The notes: generated by a model not told the origin, from the letters alone. A stretch of 64,000 nucleotides of DNA from a bacterium (GCA_965213685.1 CBDBZY010000064.1:608001-672000); one strand, 5' to 3'; counted from the first letter of the stretch, positions 10,348-61,413 are shown. Made by a program: numbers and translations.

Positions 10348-10623
10348 CAATTGATCCAAGTTTAGGGGTCTGCGTGTACAGCATCTGTACTTATTCTAAT
10401 TATGCGTGAGTAACAGTTCAACTTTTTTGTAACTATTGTGCTGAACTTCAACATAAGCTGGTACATATTATGTATTCTAGTGACACTTTTTAAAACAATC
10501 ATAATGTACATGGTGGACAATGCATTTTTCTTTACACTGCTGTACATAAATTACAGTTCAACTATTCCCTCTGTACGTGGCTAATGAAATGTTGGAGTGA
10601 TTCAAAAGAGAAATAAAATTCAA

Positions 10624-11455
10624 TGATGAGTTGTCAAAAATGTAGTGAGAAAAGAAGGAAAACTTCATCTTCTGCGCTCAATGTACTGCACCACGTCTTT
10701 TCCCACGCCAGATTGTCTCTGCTCCTTGAGATGTTCTTCTCATGACTTGCTCTAATGTAGTCTGCAGGGCAGAGTACCTCCACCACTGTACACACATGTA
10801 GAATTATGCTCTATAACCTTCTGTGGATGCCTGATGAAATCCTCACTGTGGATATATCAATATCGTATGTGCAAACTCTAGACACTTTCACCACTGTTTT
10901 AGCATACCAGATTGATACAATAATTATTGATACTTCAATTCCACAAACATTCATTCCACTGTGCACTCTGTCTGACGGCCTTCATGTCATCTTCATGGGC
11001 AAACCGAGAGCACTAGTTGCTCTCACGTATATGCAACATAAAACAATTGGCACTTCAACAAACTGCTTTGGACCTGCTGAAATGTGATGTACTAAAATTA
11101 ATGCTGCAGAGAGATATTCTCTACTCTTGTCACTGATGACATTCAGCTGACGGAATGCTCCCTGCCAAGCTGTTGAGGTGTGAACTTACCTTTGTCTTCC
11201 TCACTCCTCCACCCACTCATCTGGATGGCATTGTTGTAGCTATTACTGTAGACCTTGCTGAAGAGCACACTTCTGTCCTGCAGTGAGCTGGGTCTGTCCA
11301 GCAGAGTGCACTCCTCCAGAATCCTGTACTTGTGGTTACAGGGTTTGGGTGTGCACATCCATCATGCTGCCAATGTTAATGATGCTGTGACCACTTTCGG
11401 GGTAGCCAATGAAAAGGATTAACTTTTCTATGCTATCCACTTCAGATTTCTGGGA
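10624..11455 (-). pseudogene. Sulfotransferase pseudogene, paralog of 51975-52940
   Basis: Colinear with the intact gene (e.g. YRILEECTLLDRPSSLQDRSVLFSKVYSNSYNNAIQMSGWRSE) but with indels/frameshifts and internal deletions; the membrane-anchor 5' end is not recognisable. Confidence 0.85.
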
Positions 11456-13655
11456 GATCTTGAAGTCGAAGGAGAACTCTAACTGTGACAAACCAAGCCT
11501 TTACAATCACAACTAGATTTCACTCAGGCAAGCAGAAGAAGAGAGTTGGATCGTGCTCTGCCAAGATATTTGTAAAATTCCATAGCACAATGTTTCTGCC
11601 CACGGCCTTCCTCAGGTGTACAATGGACAGACTGAGACTACTTAGCAATTTGTACAACAGTTCATACCAACAAAAGTGCACAGCAGGTACATGTATGTAG
11701 ATGATGCGCATGGTGACAAAGCTTATCAGTGAATGAATGGGTATATATGATCATCTATAAGGATTCCATGCTTAGGTTCATTCCCTTTTGTGTCCAGGGT
11801 GGAGACCCATCTGCTCTCCCTGATCTTTTGCATAATTCCTTGGAGGACGTTCCTGACATCTGTTCAGTGCCAGCTGCTGTGATCAAACATGTAACTGCAT
11901 ATTTGTGGGTTAAAATGACCATGGACTTCTTGCAGTTTGATTGACATGTAAAGAAGTATAGACACATGAGTTTAGGAGTGTGGCCTGCGGGCACACGATT
12001 GGAAATGAATCACATGCCCGTATACCCTCCGCGGACTAGTCACGTGCGTGAGTGTTGGAAAAAGGAGAAATCAAAATTGAGGTCGGAAGAAGTAGTGACA
12101 TCCAAATCCTTACACTGGTCATTGACTACAATTTTAAATTCGTTCAGATGATTATTGTAAAGAAAAGGAGCTTCGCGAAGATAATAATGAACAACTGAAC
12201 ATTTGTGGTAATTCAGTAAGATCGCTTTGGAATAGGGAACAGTCTTCCATAGAAGAGATATCTTTGGAGCACTTCACATCATCTGCAAAAAGAAATAGTG
12301 TGCTGAACTTGGAGAAAGCTGGAATATCATTGATAAAGATCAGAAATAATAAAGGGCCCAAAATGCTGCCCTGGGGCACACCCGACACGACAGGAAGAAA
12401 GTCAGATACTGTACCATTAACTGAAACACACTGTACCCGTTTGGTTAGGTATGCACGAAGCCACTCCCACAGGTTATCTGTAATTCCGAAGCTCCACAAT
12501 TTGTGCAGTAATATATTATGGACAATGGAGTCAAAGGCCTTCTTGAAGTCCAAATATATTACATCACCTTGACAAGCATAACACAGTTTCTCAAAAAGAC
12601 ACTCGAAGAAAAATATAAGTTGCTGTAATTTGGAACGATTTGGCAAGAACCCAAATTGACAGGGCGACACATAAGTGTCCACAAATTCAATAACGTTCTG
12701 GTGAACAAACTTTTCAAGGACCTTTGAGATGGAACTTAGCAGTGAAGTTGGTCTGTAGTTTTCGATTGATGCTATATCAGATTTATGGATGGGGTTTATT
12801 ATGTGCACCCGCCAGTCTTGAGGGAGATAATGCTGAGACAAACTCAGATGATGCAGTGAGACTGACAGGGGACAGTTGTGTTAAACATGGAGTGGAAATA
12901 TTGCTGGTAGGTTATAACTACCTGTGATACTCCAAACATATTTGTACACAACTGAGGAATTACCAGAGTGTAGTGATTTGATTAGGTTGGTCTCAAAAAG
13001 AGATTTGGCATTTAACATCTTAAGTTCCAGTAAAAGTTCAGAATTAATCCTGGATCTGAGGTTACTTGAAGGGTGATATAAAGACACAAAGACACTTTAA
13101 ATGATGCCGAATGTCAGAATCAAACCACTTTGGGCTATTATGCATGTTTACACGAACTTTAGGAACAAACATTGATATAGCACTGATTTGATGAAAAACC
13201 AGACAAACTCAATATCATTACAAGAAAAACAAGAACTGAAGTCAACATCCATCAGGTAATAACAAATGCTACCATAATCTGTTTTGGAGTAATCCAAGAC
13301 ATAGGAAGGCCCAAACTTAGTATAGTGTTTCAATACATTGAAGGAGAAAAACTGATAACACAGTGATCTGATAAAAGAGTGACAGATGCTGAAGATAAAA
13401 CTAGATCAAGGATATTTCCTTTAACATGAGTAGGCAGTGACACATGTTGGGTAAGATTACAATCATATATGAAATCACAAAACTTATTAGATAATTCAGA
13501 GGAGGCAAAAAGGGATGACCGATGATATCAGGAAAGTTGAAATCTTCTACAATGATACAGTGAACTGAGGATGATTGTAAATCAGTGAGATAATCAATGA
13601 GTAAACCAACATATATATGAATGACTAGCTGAGGGTGGAACATAGACACAGCATA

Positions 13656-17150: not shown

Positions 17151-18686
17151 ATGTGTACCCACTATAGAACGTCTCCCAACAAGAAGAAGGTTCTCATTGG
17201 CTATACAGTCTGCCTGACGCTTGTTGTGCTCACTTTGTTGAGCGTAAAGCAAGAAATCCAGTCTCCTATCGCCAACAACAGTGTCACGGCTGTGTACACC
17301 GGGGAGAGGACAAGCTCGCTAAGTCAGGCTAACTCAACACTAACGGCGAAGGAAAGAAATGGACACCACGCGGGGAGAGAGAGGGTCAAAGTCCCACAAA
17401 CAGCGGAACAGCGTGGCTACTTGGTGGTTTTGAATTTTCCAGAACAGTTAACTGCAGCCACAGACGACCTAATCCAGTTGTACACGTTTAATCAAAAGCA
17501 CTTGAAGTTGAGAATGATAGAGCCCTATGTACTAGGATCTCATCTGAAAACTGTACCTCCAGTATCTGAAGATTTCAGGTCTCTTCCACTGATTAGTACC
17601 TTCTTGAATAGGACTGCCATGCTTACTATTCTGAAGAGGTGTTTTCATTCAGACCACGTGGACTGGCATCCTTTCCCTGATTTCCTGATCAACGCTGCCC
17701 GACAGTTCGTTGTTGTGACATTTGTTACAGCAAAAGCAACAATGTTAAATGGGAATATTTCTACCTGTAGTTCCAATATGGAACATATTGAATATGTTTT
17801 CAATTATCACTTGAAGAAGGTGAGCAATAGAGCACTTTCCAAGCATGGAGTGAACTACACTTTCAGAGGTGTACATTCACTGTGTGTGAAAGCAATACCT
17901 GGGGAACCTTTCTCCATGAAAGATGTGGTACAGTTCATTAGAACATGGATGACCAACACTTCCCATGGAACTAAAGAACCTTTCTCTCCCCAATTTTCTG
18001 TTGTCATTCCAGAGTGGAGAGCTGTAAAGAACACAGAGGATCCCTTCTACTACTACGATCCTAGTTACACAGGCAGGAATATGACAGGTTCGTGTCAATC
18101 ACGGTCTCTAGCACACACCTCATATGTTACTGAAGCTGCCAAAAGTATGTTCCAACATCTGTCACTCTCTCGACCATTCATTGCTGTACATGTACGTTCT
18201 GAAAGAATCTCAGAACAAGAACTGAAGCGGCACAGAACAGATTTTATCAATAGCTGTATCAGTAATTTTTCAAAGATTCTTCAGGTTGTAATGAAAGTCC
18301 ACAATATATCGCTGGAAAATGTTGTATTTGTTCATGATGGGAGTCAGTATGGTAGTGATTCAATGGGAAGTCAAAAAAGTCAAAAAAGGAGTGCATCCAA
18401 TTACATTATATCAAGAATAAAGGCAATTGGGATTAAAAATGTACAATACAAATCACAAAATAGCCCTATTAACGTCAATTCAAGTGCTACAGAATCTGCA
18501 CTTGTTCAGTTTGTTGAGAAGGAGTTTCTAGTGTCAGCTGATGTTCTTATTGCACTGGGCTATGGTGGGTTCCAGGGCAGTCTCATCAGAAGGTTCAAGG
18601 CAAAGAGCAGTGGTGGAAACAATTGGTACAAACTCTGCTCTGATTTTACAAAAAATGATCGTCTTCCAGTAAACATTTCTTTCTAA
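17151..18686 (+). CDS. Type II membrane O-fucosyltransferase-like glycosyltransferase (GT-B), intronless, 511 aa, copy 1
   Basis: N-terminal TM VLIGYTVCLTLVVLTLLSV; EQLTAA N-terminal motif; RPFIAVHVRSE and VEKEFLVSADVLIALGYGGF, resembling GDP-fucose-binding motifs of the O-FucT family. Confidence 0.75.
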   Translation: MCTHYRTSPNKKKVLIGYTVCLTLVVLTLLSVKQEIQSPIANNSVTAVYTGERTSSLSQANSTLTAKERNGHHAGRERVKVPQTAEQRGYLVVLNFPEQLTAATDDLIQLYTFNQKHLKLRMIEPYVLGSHLKTVPPVSEDFRSLPLISTFLNRTAMLTILKRCFHSDHVDWHPFPDFLINAARQFVVVTFVTAKATMLNGNISTCSSNMEHIEYVFNYHLKKVSNRALSKHGVNYTFRGVHSLCVKAIPGEPFSMKDVVQFIRTWMTNTSHGTKEPFSPQFSVVIPEWRAVKNTEDPFYYYDPSYTGRNMTGSCQSRSLAHTSYVTEAAKSMFQHLSLSRPFIAVHVRSERISEQELKRHRTDFINSCISNFSKILQVVMKVHNISLENVVFVHDGSQYGSDSMGSQKSQKRSASNYIISRIKAIGIKNVQYKSQNSPINVNSSATESALVQFVEKEFLVSADVLIALGYGGFQGSLIRRFKAKSSGGNNWYKLCSDFTKNDRLPVNISF

Positions 18687-19635: not shown

Positions 19636-20810
19636 CTTTTTTTTTTCTATACAAGTGAGATAAGAAGTACAGTACAAAGATATGGGAGGCAACATGTAAA
19701 TAGCTGTAAGCTAATACAAGACATGAGCCCAGTGCAGTAAGTTATGCTTAAAAACAGAAAGAGATGATGATGATCTTATGTCTACTGGTAAAGTATTCCA
19801 AACAGTAATAACGCTAGGTACATATGAAAAATAGAAGTAGTTGGTGCGAGAATGGAGTCTGTGAAATACAGATGAATTGTTTCTCTGTGACAAATGCTGG
19901 TGTAGATTGAAGATACCTGCTGGAAAAACTATGTTTCCACTAACAATGTTGAACATAGTGATGAGCTTAAGATGTTGGCGCCTGACACGAAGAAGAGGTA
20001 AATCAAGACAGTGCAGCATGTTATCATAGTCCATGTCCCAGCATTTCAAGCACACTTTACATGCAAACTTTTGCACTGACTCTAACATTTGAATGTCTCT
20101 CTTGACATGCGGGTCCCACAGCTGAGCAGCATACTCCAAGTGAGGGCGAATACATGTTATGTGTATGGATCGAAGAACAGATGTGTTTGCCCAGAAGTAG
20201 AATTGCCTGTACATCATTCCAATTAGCTTTCTTGCCTTTGAGCACACTTGCTGTATGTGCTCAGACCAAGTAAGAGTTTCAGTGACAAGTATGCCCAGGT
20301 ACCGATAACTCCTAACATGTTCCAGAGCTTCACCATTCAGATGTAGCCCTGAAGATGGTAGTGTAGGCTGTCTCTTTCGTGATGCAATGATGTACTTACA
20401 TTTAGAAGAGTTCAGTGACAGATATAAGCTTTTAATACAGTTGGAAATGCTATTAATATCTGTCTGTAGGTAGACATAATCATTGGAGCACTTGATGGGC
20501 TTCCACAAAAGTATGTCATCAGCATACATCAAGATCAATGCTCCATCAGAGAAGCCAAGATCAGCTACACAATTTATGTATGTCAGAAAGAGCAAGGGGC
20601 CCAGGACAGATCCCTGCGGGACCCCAGATGGAACAGAAGTAGTGCTGGATGATGCTCCTTCAACAACAACATACTGTTTTCTACAACACAGATATGAGGA
20701 GATCCATTGGAGGATGTGTGAGTTAAGCCCAATATCCTTTAGATGCTGAAGTAGAGGAGCATGTGGCACACTGTCAAATGCTTTACGCAAGTCAAAGAAT
20801 ATTAGACATA
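19636..20810 (-). mobile_element. 5'-truncated LINE (RT C-terminal half, open 359-codon frame 19711-20790)
   Basis: KAFDSVPH, SGVPQGSVLGPLLF, YADD, YLGI, IRPHLEYA motifs; A-rich tail (T run at ~19637-19646 on +). Not seen in the paralogous block. Confidence 0.9.
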
Positions 20811-21360: not shown

Positions 21361-22315
21361 ATGAAAGGAATCTTGAGCCTTGCCATGGTGCTCCTGGCTA
21401 CAGGACTGCCGTTTGCCCCTACTTCCTGTGTGCCAATTCGTGCTCCACGGGTGGGCCCAGGTACCATCCCATCACTCCAGAGCACTAATGGACAACCCCA
21501 AGCAAGCCGCACTTGGAACATGCCACAGGCTCAGGAAGCATCTCCCAATGAACAAGTGGCAGAGAAGGAACAGCTAAGATCATTGATTCGGGGAGCTTGG
21601 AATATTTATAGGAACAGGCACACCCCCAGTGACGCATCAAACATGCAGACCGACCGGAGTGACTTTGCCACGAGTGGGAAAATCAACCTGGGTGCTCCTA
21701 CTGACCAACTGAATGCTCTTACTCTCCAGCTGTTGAATAGTCAGCCCTCTGCACCTACCCCAACTGAGCCAGTGGCGGAGGCTCAGCGCAAGAGGTACTG
21801 GCCAATCGTTAGGAATTTCCTGGACAACATTCTCTCTCCAACAGACGCGCCAAGTGAGCAGCCTGACACAAATGCACTTGCTGAGAGTCTGGAGAATACC
21901 TTGAATAGGCAAATTCTCGTAGGAGCAGGCCGTCAGCCAGTAGCTTAGTCTAGCACGCTAGACCCTCTCCTTCCGCTATGCGCGCGGCGAAGCCGCGGCG
22001 CAGAAGGAGAGGGTCTAGCGTGATAGACTACCAGTAGCTAGGACTCAGGTCTGGTCATCTATGCGCAAGTTTGTGGGAGACCTCTTCGGTAAGTCGAGCG
22101 GAACCGTGCTTGAGGATTGCACGTGTTCAGATGCGTACAAGTAGGTAAACTTATAATGCGACAGATTTGTAGACGTGCGTACATATAGCAGGTTATGCAC
22201 TACAGCCATGTTGTATATGATTGTAAGAACTACCACGAATATGCGTGTACGTGCATTTTTTTCCTCCGCAATGAGCTCTCCCACTCCTTCCCTCCTGCAG
22301 CCCCAAAATGCAGCG
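21361..22315 (+). pseudogene. Secreted peptide-precursor/PLAT gene copy A, disrupted
   Basis: Near-identical to 49376-50624; hairpin MITE at 21946-22030 creates a stop, and exon 2 is broken after ~15 nt at 22315. Confidence 0.85.
21946..22030. mobile_element. 85 bp hairpin MITE, AcademH-type termini
   Basis: TIR TAGTCTAGCACGCTAGACCCTCTCCTTC / GAAGGAGAGGGTCTAGCGTGATAGACTA; 9 bp TSD CCAGTAGCT; empty site in copies B and C. Confidence 0.85.
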
Positions 22316-49375: not shown

Positions 49376-50624
49376 ATGGAAGGAATCTTGGGCCTTGCCA
49401 TGGTGCTCTTGGCTACGGGACTGCTGTTTGCCCCTACTTCCTGTATGCCAATTTATGCTCCACGGGTGGGCCCAAGTTCCATCCCATCACTCCAGAGCAC
49501 TAATGGACAACCCCAAGCAAGCCGCACTTGGAACATACCACAGGCTCAGGAAGCATCTCCCAATGAACAAGTGGCAGAGAAGGAACAGCTAGGATCATTG
49601 ATTCGGGGAGCTTGGAATATCTATAGGAACAGACACACCCCCAGTGATGCATCAAACATGCAGACCAACCGGAATGACTTTGCCATGAGTGGGAAAATCA
49701 ACCTGGGTGCTCTTACTGACCAACTGAATGCTCTTACTCTCCAGCTGTTGAATAGTCAGCCCTCTGCACATACCCCAACTGAGCCAGTGGCGGAGGCTCA
49801 GCGCAAGAGGTACTGGCCAATCGTTAGGAATTTCCTGGACAACATTCTCTCTCCAACAGACGCACCAAGTGAGCAGCCTGACACAAATACACTTGCTGAG
49901 AGTCTGGAGAATACCTTGAATAGGCAGATTCTCGTAGGAGCAGGCCCTCAGCCAGTAGCTAGGACTCAGGTCTGGTCATCTATACGCAAGTTTGTGGGAG
50001 ACCTCTTCGGTAAGTCGTGCTTGATAGATTGCACGTGTTCAGATGCGTACAAGTAGGTAAATCTTACTATAATGCGACAGATTTGTATACGTGCGTACAT
50101 ATAGCAGGTTACGCACTAGCCACGTTGTATATGACTGTAAGAACTACCACGAATGTGCGTGTACATGCATTTTTTCCTCCGCAATGAGAACATTTCCTCT
50201 CCCACTCCTTCCCTCCTGTATAGCCCCAAAATGCAGCGATGCACTATACATCATGGTCTACACCGGCAGAACCAGGAATGCATCCACCGCGGACACGCCC
50301 GACGTGGAGCTGCAGGTGGGTGAGGAAACCGAATTGGTTTCTCTGCCCCAGCTCCCGGGAGAGGAATTCGTCGCAAACAAGGGAGACCTGTGGAGGATCA
50401 ACCTCTCGGACTTCGGCTTCACAGATACCTGCATCACTAAGGGAGATGTGCAGAGGATCACTCTGGTTGAGGAAGGGAACGATGGATGGCTGATAGACTC
50501 CGTCGTGACGTTCCTGAGGACCGAGGACTCCTTCACTCTGCTGTCCAGCGATATCGACGTAAGCCGCTGGATCGATGGAAATGGAGGGTCGGAGTTGGAG
50601 CGCTTCAGCCTGAGCATCGCCTAA
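49376..50624 (+). CDS. Secreted protein: signal peptide, pro-region with repeated amphipathic peptides, C-terminal PLAT/LH2 domain; exons 49376-50009 and 50224-50624; 344 aa; copy C (intact)
   Basis: Hydrophobic N-terminus MEGILGLAMVLLATGLLFAPTSC; GTAAGT...TAG intron splices in frame (DLFA-PKC); exon 2 YIMVYTG...ASTAD...F...DGWLIDSVV...RWID fits the PLAT consensus. Confidence 0.8.
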
Positions 50625-51974: not shown

Positions 51975-52940
51975 TCATGAGTTATCAAAACTGTACTGAG
52001 AAAAGAAAGGAAATCTCTTCATCCTCCACTCAACGTACTGCACCACATCTCTCTCCCACACCACATTGTCTCTGCTCCTGGAGATGTTCCTAAAGACCTT
52101 CTCGTGGCATGCCGTAACATAGTCTGCAGGACAGGGTACCTCCAGCACTGTACAGATATGCTTTATGACCTCCTGTGGATGTCTGATGAAATCTTCACTG
52201 TGGATATCAATCACATGTGCAAACTCAGACACTTTTAGCACTGTTTCAGCAAACCAGAATATCATTTTGATGTAGTATCTCAACTTCTGAAGTTCCAAAA
52301 GTACTTGATTTCCACTCTGTCGCATGGCCCTCATGTCATCTTCATGGGCAAACCGATGCAAAGCACCGGTTGCTATCATGTCAAATGGATTTCTCACCAC
52401 ATGAAACATAACAATTGGCACTCCAACAACATCTCTTAGCATCTCAAAACAAGCCTTTGACTCATTAAAACGTCTACTAAATGTTGCAGAGAGATATCCT
52501 CCACTCTTGTCACCGATGATTTTCAGCTGACGGAATGTTCCCTGCCAAGATGTTGGGATACGTAGATTATAGCCCTTACCAATGTCCCTCTCACTCCTCC
52601 ACCCACTCATCTGGATGGCATTATTGTAGCTATTATTGTAGAGCTTGCTGAAGAGCACGCCCTTGTCCTGCAGTAGACTGGGCCTGTTCAGTAGAGCACA
52701 TTCTTCCAGTATCCTGTACTCGTGTGCTATTACAATGTTTGGGTGTGCATCCATCATGCTGCCAATGATACTGTGACCACTTCTGGGGTAGCCAATGAAG
52801 AGGACTAACTTTTCCACACCATCCACTTCAGATTGGGACAGTGAGACATTGACACCAGTTGTCTTGTCTTTGTACAGCACAGAGCACATATATAATAGCA
52901 CTAAGAATACCAGCACCACGACAACAGTACTCCTCTTCAT
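51975..52940 (-). CDS. Type II membrane sulfotransferase (TPST-like/Sulfotransfer_3), intronless coding region, ~321 aa
   Basis: Likely start MKRSTVVVVLVFLVLLYMCSVL (TM anchor); 5'-PSB loop FIGYPRSGHSIIGSMMDAHP; GDKSG; 3'-PB motif HVVRNPFDMIAT; IHSEDFIRHP. Confidence 0.85.
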   Translation of the reverse strand: MKRSTVVVVLVFLVLLYMCSVLYKDKTTGVNVSLSQSEVDGVEKLVLFIGYPRSGHSIIGSMMDAHPNIVIAHEYRILEECALLNRPSLLQDKGVLFSKLYNNSYNNAIQMSGWRSERDIGKGYNLRIPTSWQGTFRQLKIIGDKSGGYLSATFSRRFNESKACFEMLRDVVGVPIVMFHVVRNPFDMIATGALHRFAHEDDMRAMRQSGNQVLLELQKLRYYIKMIFWFAETVLKVSEFAHVIDIHSEDFIRHPQEVIKHICTVLEVPCPADYVTACHEKVFRNISRSRDNVVWERDVVQYVEWRMKRFPFFSQYSFDNS

Positions 52941-53235
52941 CCTACACTTCCCTCTGTAACTCATGTAAGTAGCTAGGTGTACATATAGCTCTAGCTCTGG
53001 CATGCTCTGCACAACTACATGTGGAAACACAGCAAACGTTCTTCTGCTAGTATCTATGGGAGGACTTGCAGGCTCCATGCCATGTGTACATAGGGATATG
53101 ATGCATTGGAGGGAATGCATGAAACCCCTGGCTGGCATGCATTCCACTGCAGCTAGGTGCTTCATACCAGTAACAAATATGCAAGCTGGAATTTGCCAGT
53201 AATCAATAATAATTACATCAATTGATCTTTGTTAC

Positions 53236-54987: not shown

Positions 54988-61413
<6,426 letters not shown>

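Follow-up and report, generated by a model that had tools for sequence, protein, structure and literature searches.

The 64,000-nucleotide (nt) stretch analysed here (GCA_965213685.1 CBDBZY010000064.1:608001-672000, referred to below as the window) is filed under a bacterium and contains a two-exon gene, designated gene B, whose predicted product joins short amphipathic segments to a C-terminal domain resembling PLAT. The locus raises the question of whether such a product is cut into free membrane-active peptides, as a first-pass annotation of the DNA had proposed, or acts as a single secreted protein. As a fairly probable answer, gene B is considered here to encode a secreted PLAT-like binder of lipids or membranes, in which a repeat-built amphipathic extension works together with the domain and is possibly trimmed at a dibasic site.

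Gene structure and predicted secretion

Joining the two exons of gene B (49376-50009 and 50224-50624) gives 1035 nt, that is, 344 codons and a stop codon. This two-exon model of 344 amino acids (aa), already put forward in the first-pass annotation, is based on consensus splice signals and comparison, and was borne out by the splice consensus, by the joined coordinates and by the homologues. Ten homologous open reading frames (ORFs) of exon 1, with 53-94% identity, contain no stops, and all of those that reach the end of the exon read ..LF/LL-G-K/Q.., which corresponds to a conserved G|GTAAG donor read through. In the stand-alone ORFs homologous to exon 2, the homology reaches only to 1-3 residues upstream of the conserved first Cys, beyond which the sequence is unrelated; the acceptor of gene B lies at this position. 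Furthermore, one 1.94-Mb contig of a related organism carries four exon-1-type and two exon-2-type ORFs. No close relative of exon 2 exceeding 231 aa, as a spliced full-length form might do, was found, which is weak evidence, and profile searches of genome contigs with the exon-1 alignment or the close exon-2 alignment returned no related loci. The sole match in metagenome contigs (L003), a bacterial ORF sharing only an ..IRNFLNNILS.. stretch, was judged to be due to chance. Four contigs aligned to gene B carry the intron and show no joints, which has no bearing on expression or splicing.

The leader of the protein is predicted to be a signal peptide on the basis of its hydrophobicity: the hydrophobic core reaches a maximum Kyte-Doolittle value of 2.5 over 12 residues, small residues occupy positions -3 and -1, and the leader is kept in homologues, all of which suggests that the product is secreted.

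The window holds three copies of the gene (A, B and C), of which B is intact and open over all 344 codons. Copies A and B are approximately 97-99% identical across the exons and the intron (18 of 633 nt differ in exon 1, two in the intron and five of 396 in exon 2), and the whole aligned unit with its flanks is 95.6% identical. The exon 1 differences comprise 13 non-synonymous and four synonymous changes, corresponding to a ratio of non-synonymous to synonymous substitution rates (dN/dS) of approximately 1, which would be expected if copy A is dead and which comes from too few changes to interpret. Gene B is a real and probably functional animal gene.

The C-terminal domain

Exon 2 encodes a domain of about 130 residues with a net charge of -14 and an isoelectric point of 4.1. 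The call of a PLAT domain in the first-pass annotation holds at the level of the superfamily, by remote homology and by fold, whereas Pfam's own model does not detect the domain, which does not reach the gathering threshold of PF01477. A single-sequence phmmer search with exon 2 gave no match in the PDB; in an exhaustive phmmer search, the number of cluster representatives was 286 at E<=1e-3 and 165 at E<=1e-10. When a 65-sequence profile of this family was compared with the PDB, five clostridial alpha-toxin sequences were retrieved with E values from 1.6e-4 to 0.012, the sole remaining match being unrelated (E 0.12). Against Pfam at E<=0.1, 12 of the 65 relatives matched PLAT (best E 4e-5) and five matched ATS3; two relatives scored 17.4 and 17.5 bits against the PLAT cut-off of 23. 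The gene B protein had no match to ATS3 (PF06232), and for the relative P0003, with six domains, the summed score is 35 bits (cut-off 27), none of its individual stretches passing. A search of the ESM Atlas with exon 2 returned unnamed clusters followed by PLAT/ATS3 clusters at 0.86-0.92, and was used only as a lead.

An AlphaFold2 model of the domain, built from the 65-sequence alignment, is predicted with a mean local distance difference test score (pLDDT) of 97.2 and contains eight main strands, the PLAT/LH2 fold (CATH 2.60.60.20) being a beta-sandwich of two four-stranded sheets. In VIA-align, this model superimposes on residues 252-370 of alpha-toxin with a Z score of 16.5 and a root-mean-square deviation of 1.6 Å over 114 of 132 residues, with Z scores of 12-13.5 for the PLAT domains of lipoxygenases and of 8-9 for those of lipase, lipoprotein lipase and Rab6IP1; 73 chains in total are matched at Z>=8. 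Foldseek gave 50 matches at E<=1e-3, with E approximately 1e-6 for the lipoxygenase domains; a PLAT domain is present in every entry listed (alpha-toxin, lipoxygenase, lipase-related protein and Rab6IP1). The domain family is thus a divergent branch of the PLAT superfamily that lies outside the current Pfam model.

The only two cysteines of the domain, C215 and C281, stand at positions conserved across the family, and they are therefore likely to form a disulfide. In the profile alignment, the family consensus stretches 'nAgsdd' and 'lpgddy' lie over the DAGTDN and NPGNDF loops of alpha-toxin, which we take to be its Ca2+/membrane-binding loops. In gene B these loops read NASTAD and LPGEEF, so that the ligand residues are only partly kept. 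Members of the superfamily bind lipids, membranes or a protein partner, often in a Ca2+-dependent manner; the domain of gene B may bind lipids or membranes, of which its charge of -14 and the acidic family motifs over the toxin loops are indirect signs.

A hidden Markov model of our own found the domain in 178 of 189 proteins: once in 163, twice in 13, three times in one and five times in one. In P0003, P0008 and P0083 it is present as three to six tandem copies or behind two SRCR domains, and these arrangements show that larger extracellular proteins are assembled with the PLAT-like domain as one of their modules. None of ten relatives looked up carried an informative name. An N-terminal extension of at least 40 aa with a Met start occurs in 33 relatives, and a clearly hydrophobic leader in 17 of these 33. 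A dibasic pair lies between the leader and the domain in 12 of the 17, typically where an acidic stretch ends and with 5-35 residues left to the first Cys, a count that includes several near-duplicates and P0083, in which the pair lies inside the SRCR part. The usual layout of the family, as predicted from these relatives, is a signal peptide, a short acidic pro-piece, KR or RR, Cys and the domain, as is common among secreted proteins that convertases process.

The N-terminal repeat region

Between the leader and the domain, gene B has a poorly ordered N-terminal region of approximately 190 residues, which is specific to its lineage. The three VAxx(x)Q segments described in the first-pass annotation and the linkers TPSDAS, TPTEP and TDAPSEQPDT are all present in the translation, segments 2 and 3 conform to the pattern W-x-x-[VI]-R-x-F-[LV]-x-x-[IL], and the last segment runs across the intron into the domain as described. 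The expression VA.{2,3}Q, chosen post hoc, occurs three times in exon 1, and at least three occurrences were seen in only two of 20,000 shuffled sequences. The claimed amphipathicity stood in part: when the hydrophobic moment is computed in 11-residue windows along the whole protein, the top eight values all come from the three segments, whereas over whole segments the amphipathicity is only modest, the fractions of shuffles reaching the observed moment being 0.22, 0.19, 0.047 (segment 2 without RKR) and 0.044.

Comparison of profiles with hhalign matched module 2 (residues 128-165) to module 3 (186-211) with a probability of 92.8 and an E value of 3.9e-7, by which modules 2 and 3 are homologous internal repeats. 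Module 1 aligned with module 2 in register and more weakly (E 1.8e-3, probability 15), and the two 'spacer' helices aligned weakly with each other (E 0.017). Because the module and spacer sub-alignments match in this way, the region can be described as approximately 2.5 copies of a predicted unit consisting of a Pro-capped amphipathic helix starting from VAxxQ, a linker rich in Pro, Ser, Thr and acidic residues, and a Leu-rich neutral or acidic helix.

The motifs themselves are strongly conserved. In the ten homologues, VAEAQ is identical in 49 of 50 alignment cells and VARTQ in 43 of 45, which makes them the best-conserved stretches of exon 1 and bears out the AxxQ conservation for which a check had been proposed. 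Identity to the gene B residues is 0.84 in segment 3 (98 of 117 cells), 0.79 in segment 2 and 0.59 in segment 1, compared with 0.78 in spacer 2 and 0.58 in spacer 1; thus, a pattern of conserved, cationic peptides separated by drifting spacers is not seen (0.78 versus 0.79 and 0.84, and 0.58 versus 0.59). The 'spacers' carry invariant, periodically placed leucines and acidic residues, including L110, L113, D115, L125, A174, E175, L177, E178, L181, N182, Q184 and L186, and spacer 2 is itself helix-prone. Within segments 2 and 3, the polar positions N156, S159, P160, S201 and S202 are invariant. Module 1 varies in sequence and keeps its hydrophobic pattern among the homologues, and four of these have it duplicated or expanded: P0177 and P0180 have expansions inside this module, and P0176 and P0182 have an extra module, which in P0182 has a net charge of +8 and a hydrophobic moment of 0.65. 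The description of the segments as cationic fared poorly: their net charge is 0 to +3 in gene B and -1 to +8 in the homologues.

For the fold models, the exon-1 region and the domain were modelled as separate chains. The AlphaFold model of the N-terminal region (pLDDT 36) contains five predicted helices (residues 62-84, 110-126, 136-158, 170-186 and 194-210), and in this low-confidence model each helix that covers one of the three segments begins no later than its VAxxQ, a placement that fits a helix N-terminus rather than an exposed cut site. The predicted complex of the domain with residues 136-211 scored 0.02, and a search of the ESM Atlas with exon 1 gave a best score of 0.77 and no lead.

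Processing and alternative explanations

Two dibasic sites are present in the protein, namely R143-K-R145 and a pair within segment 3 (R204-K205). The first matches the usual pro-piece boundary of the family, and cleavage there, which is possible, would leave residues 146-211 on the domain. A pair [RK][RK] precedes YWP in all ten homologues, its last residue being Lys in four. No basic, dibasic or Gly-basic sites closing the proposed peptides were found in the gene B protein, and the R-N-R after segment 1 is not conserved in the homologues. To our knowledge, AxxQ is not a processing signal of secretory precursors, and its proposed role as one was not supported, since we know of no established signal of this kind and the low-confidence model places the motif in the first helix turns. 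The same is true of the layout of acidic spacer, processing motif and cationic helix read by the first-pass annotation as that of a peptide precursor: canonical flanking sites are absent, and spacer 2 is conserved like segments 2 and 3.

In the favoured explanation, the leader would be removed and the domain would form its one disulfide, C215-C281. The PLAT loops would then bind a lipid or membrane surface, perhaps with Ca2+, and the amphipathic helices would fold on contact, adding avidity or insertion. A convertase may remove residues 24-145 at the dibasic site, giving a mature form of three helices plus the PLAT domain. By computed net charge the domain is acidic and the N-terminal part neutral, and cationic helices take turns with acidic ones, the last, beside the domain of charge -14, being cationic, an order that suggests charge pairing. 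Several observations weigh against this explanation. Neither exon matches a Pfam family at E<=1; the very low confidence of the N-terminal model (pLDDT 36) leaves the predicted helix boundaries soft; the presumed splicing and secretion are deduced from consensus signals and comparison only; some of the ten exon-1 homologues are paralogues drawn from a small number of contigs, so that these ten do not count as independent sequences; and the dibasic site ends in Lys in four of the ten, which is poor for furin-type enzymes. Moreover, with two of three local copies broken and an exon-1 dN/dS of about 1, local constraint is not demonstrable, and the top conservation of VAEAQ and VARTQ together with the variable number of modules would also fit a processed multi-peptide precursor.

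This last explanation is that of the first-pass annotation, in which endoproteolysis of each VAxxQ, at its Gln or beside it, would release two or three short amphipathic, membrane-active peptides and a helix-PLAT module of cytolytic or lipid-binding function; the peptides might begin with pyroglutamate if the cut falls before the Gln. It is a possible reading, at present a minority one, and we regard it as rather unlikely. The repeated modules, in each of which an invariant short motif immediately precedes an amphipathic stretch, the differing number of modules among the homologues with the strongly charged and amphipathic extra module of P0182 (+8, moment 0.65), the Pro/acidic linkers after each segment, the drift of module 1 under a kept hydrophobic pattern, and the location of the protein's highest hydrophobic moments within the segments would all be accounted for. 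However, no secretory protease known to us cuts AxxQ, the segments are only 13-17 residues long and are not closed by basic, dibasic or Gly-basic sites, apart from the RKR after the second Gln, and their charges are small and change sign among the homologues. In addition, conservation in the linkers and 'spacer' helices equals that of segments 2 and 3, and the invariant polar positions in these two segments suggest a specific interaction rather than generic lysis. A bolder claim, that with gene B a new class of precursors for host defence or toxins in animals comes to light, with novel VAxxQ-type cuts releasing several short membrane-active peptides and a helix-PLAT module that targets and perturbs membranes, is quite unlikely; if it were true, the PLAT sandwich would play a role as in clostridial alpha-toxin, and the number of modules would evolve by tandem duplication.

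A further explanation, considered unlikely, is that the N-terminal region is a disposable pro-piece serving sorting, folding or inactivity, which is cut at the dibasic site and trimmed so that the product is approximately the PLAT-like domain alone. Most leader-bearing relatives do have a short acidic pro-piece with a dibasic site 5-35 residues before the first Cys, and the region has no confident fold; yet residues 146-211, which follow the main dibasic site, are the best-conserved part of exon 1, and between them and the domain there is no second site except R204-K205 inside segment 3. That gene B is not a working gene at all, being either a decaying member of a recent cluster or two unrelated adjacent ORFs, is very improbable. 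The two broken copies of three and the dN/dS of about 1, on very few changes, are what such a locus could display, but copy B is open over 344 codons with perfect splice consensus, relatives of exon 1 and exon 2 co-occur on another contig (of 1.94 Mb), the frames of both exons stay open in relatives with as little as approximately 53-55% identity, and the position of the intron just before the conserved Cys recurs in the homologues.

Relation to known systems

The C-terminal PLAT domain of clostridial alpha-toxin, or phospholipase C (2wxt, 1ca1, 1olp), is the best structural match to the domain and the sole solved family reached by the profile. The identity is 16-18%, and unlike alpha-toxin the gene B protein has no phospholipase domain, is eukaryotic, would be secreted from such a cell and has a Cys pair. 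The N-terminal PLAT/LH2 domains of animal lipoxygenases (coral 8R-LOX, 2fnq/3fg1; human 15-LOX-2, 4nre; 5-LOX, 3o8y) share the same eight-stranded sandwich, whereas the gene B domain lacks a catalytic domain and is presumably extracellular rather than cytosolic.

Closer in overall organization are the short single-PLAT proteins of plants (PLAT1 and ATS3) and of tetranychid mites, which, according to the available parts of the reports, consist like the gene B protein of a leader and one PLAT-type domain, are likewise encoded in tandem gene clusters and are of essentially unknown function (PMC6288829; PMC4232524). A paper from 2018 states that short single-PLAT proteins were known only from plants and mites (PMC6288829). 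Gene B differs in adding the repeat-built amphipathic region, which the available parts of these reports do not describe for the plant and mite proteins.

Multi-copy peptide precursors and precursors of linear helical antimicrobial peptides, as a general class, resemble gene B in their leader, tandem modules of motif plus amphipathic stretch, Pro/acidic linkers and variable number of modules, but gene B lacks flanking basic or amidation sites and has weak and inconsistent charge, conserved spacers and a folded domain fused at its end. With actinoporins, gene B shares the concept of a membrane-binding beta-sandwich immediately preceded by an amphipathic helix. The gene B sandwich is, however, of the PLAT type, with no match to the actinoporin family (PF06369) or any other Pfam family at E<=1, and the resemblance is one of analogy only; the fold matches listed for the domain are filled by PLAT domains, and absence from them does not exclude a family such as the actinoporins.

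In open-access papers and preprints, no PLAT domain preceded by repeated amphipathic modules, no architecture of PLAT plus peptide precursor and no secreted PLAT proteins of marine animals were found, and in the sequence searches the amphipathic repeat head accompanied no other PLAT protein. What is exposed is a large unnamed branch of PLAT proteins (286 representatives), apparently secreted, often bearing a pro-piece, with single or tandem domains, and missed by Pfam. With its added head, the gene B protein is a candidate bipartite membrane binder or peptide precursor.

Genomic origin and neighbourhood

The assembly to which the window belongs (G000) is presented as one prokaryotic genome, and the majority of its 71 contigs combine a G+C content of 61-69% with a long-ORF cover of 0.84-1.0. 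A group of 21 contigs, amounting to approximately 4.9 of 7.97 Mb and including the contig of the window (C64), has 42-54% G+C and an ORF cover of only 0.10-0.64; the 64-kb window contains only 29 ORFs of at least 150 aa. Elsewhere on C64 (L004, G000:C64:1123098-1126898) lies a rhodopsin-family G-protein-coupled receptor (7tm_1, 108 bits) in a 430-aa open frame; the same 7tm_1 search matched in none of 14 control bacteria. Because of this receptor, the low ORF density, the (CA)n microsatellite and the reverse-transcriptase fragments (Table 1), C64 is concluded to be animal DNA binned with a bacterium, and G000 is a mixed assembly. A "bacterial" reference genome thus carries approximately 4.9 Mb of apparently animal DNA, the exons of which are called as bacterial genes. 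In the protein database, exons of gene B appear among the ORFs of bacterial style (P0153). A 2.5-kb contig of the same assembly (G000:C37), with 32.7% G+C and dense ORFs, resembles neither the bacterium of 65% G+C nor the animal contigs, and possibly comes from a third organism.

Table 1. Features of gene B and of the window; positions are counted from the first nucleotide of the window, which is itself given by its position on the contig.
Feature	Position	Strand	Description
Window	G000:C64:608001-672000		C64 is a 1.64-Mb contig of assembly G000
TATA-like box TATAAAAA	49299..49306	+	Putative promoter element, ~70 nt before the ATG; retained in paralogue A with one change
Exon 1	49376..50009	+	211 codons and first base of codon 212; first in-frame ATG at 49376, within AGCCATGG
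Predicted signal peptide	49376..49444	+	Residues 1-23; putative cleavage after ..PTSC
Module 1	49571..49633	+	Residues 66-86; VAEKEQ and amphipathic segment LGSLIRGAWNIYRNR; most variable module
Module 2	49787..49852	+	Residues 138-159; VAEAQ, RKR and YWPIVRNFLDNILS
Dibasic site R143-K-R145	49802..49810	+	Candidate convertase site, after the second Gln
Module 3	49955..50008	+	Residues 194-211; VARTQ and VWSSIRKFVGDLF; abuts the domain
Intron	50010..50223	+	214 nt, phase 1; G|GTAAGT donor, long pyrimidine tract, TATAG acceptor
Exon 2	50224..50624	+	PLAT/LH2-like beta-sandwich, residues 213-344 (50226-50621), and stop
Paralogue A	38168..39416	+	Same two exons; TCA>TGA stop at codon 74 (38387-38389)
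Paralogue C	21361..22315	+	Exon 1 interrupted near its 3' end; homology stops 15 nt into exon 2
Reverse-transcriptase (RVT_1) fragments	12152-12841, 19711-20790	-	Probably decayed retroelements
Two 511-aa ORFs	17151-18686, 45892-47427	+	98% identical DNA; each a few kb upstream of a gene copy
Single-exon 396-aa ORF	51975-53165	-	Weak sulfotransferase matches (Sulfotransfer_3, E 1.1e-6); just downstream of gene B
(CA)n microsatellite	58717-59470		~379 units, 750 bp

The strong G/C skew and the stacked overlapping ORFs at 58.5-59.6 kb are due to the microsatellite. The two 511-aa ORFs gave no match in Pfam, nor did the copy at 45892 in a sequence search of the PDB, and they may be part of a duplicated unit or of a mobile element. 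The sulfotransferase-like ORF of 396 aa has a second copy at 10623-11448, with 76.5% identity.

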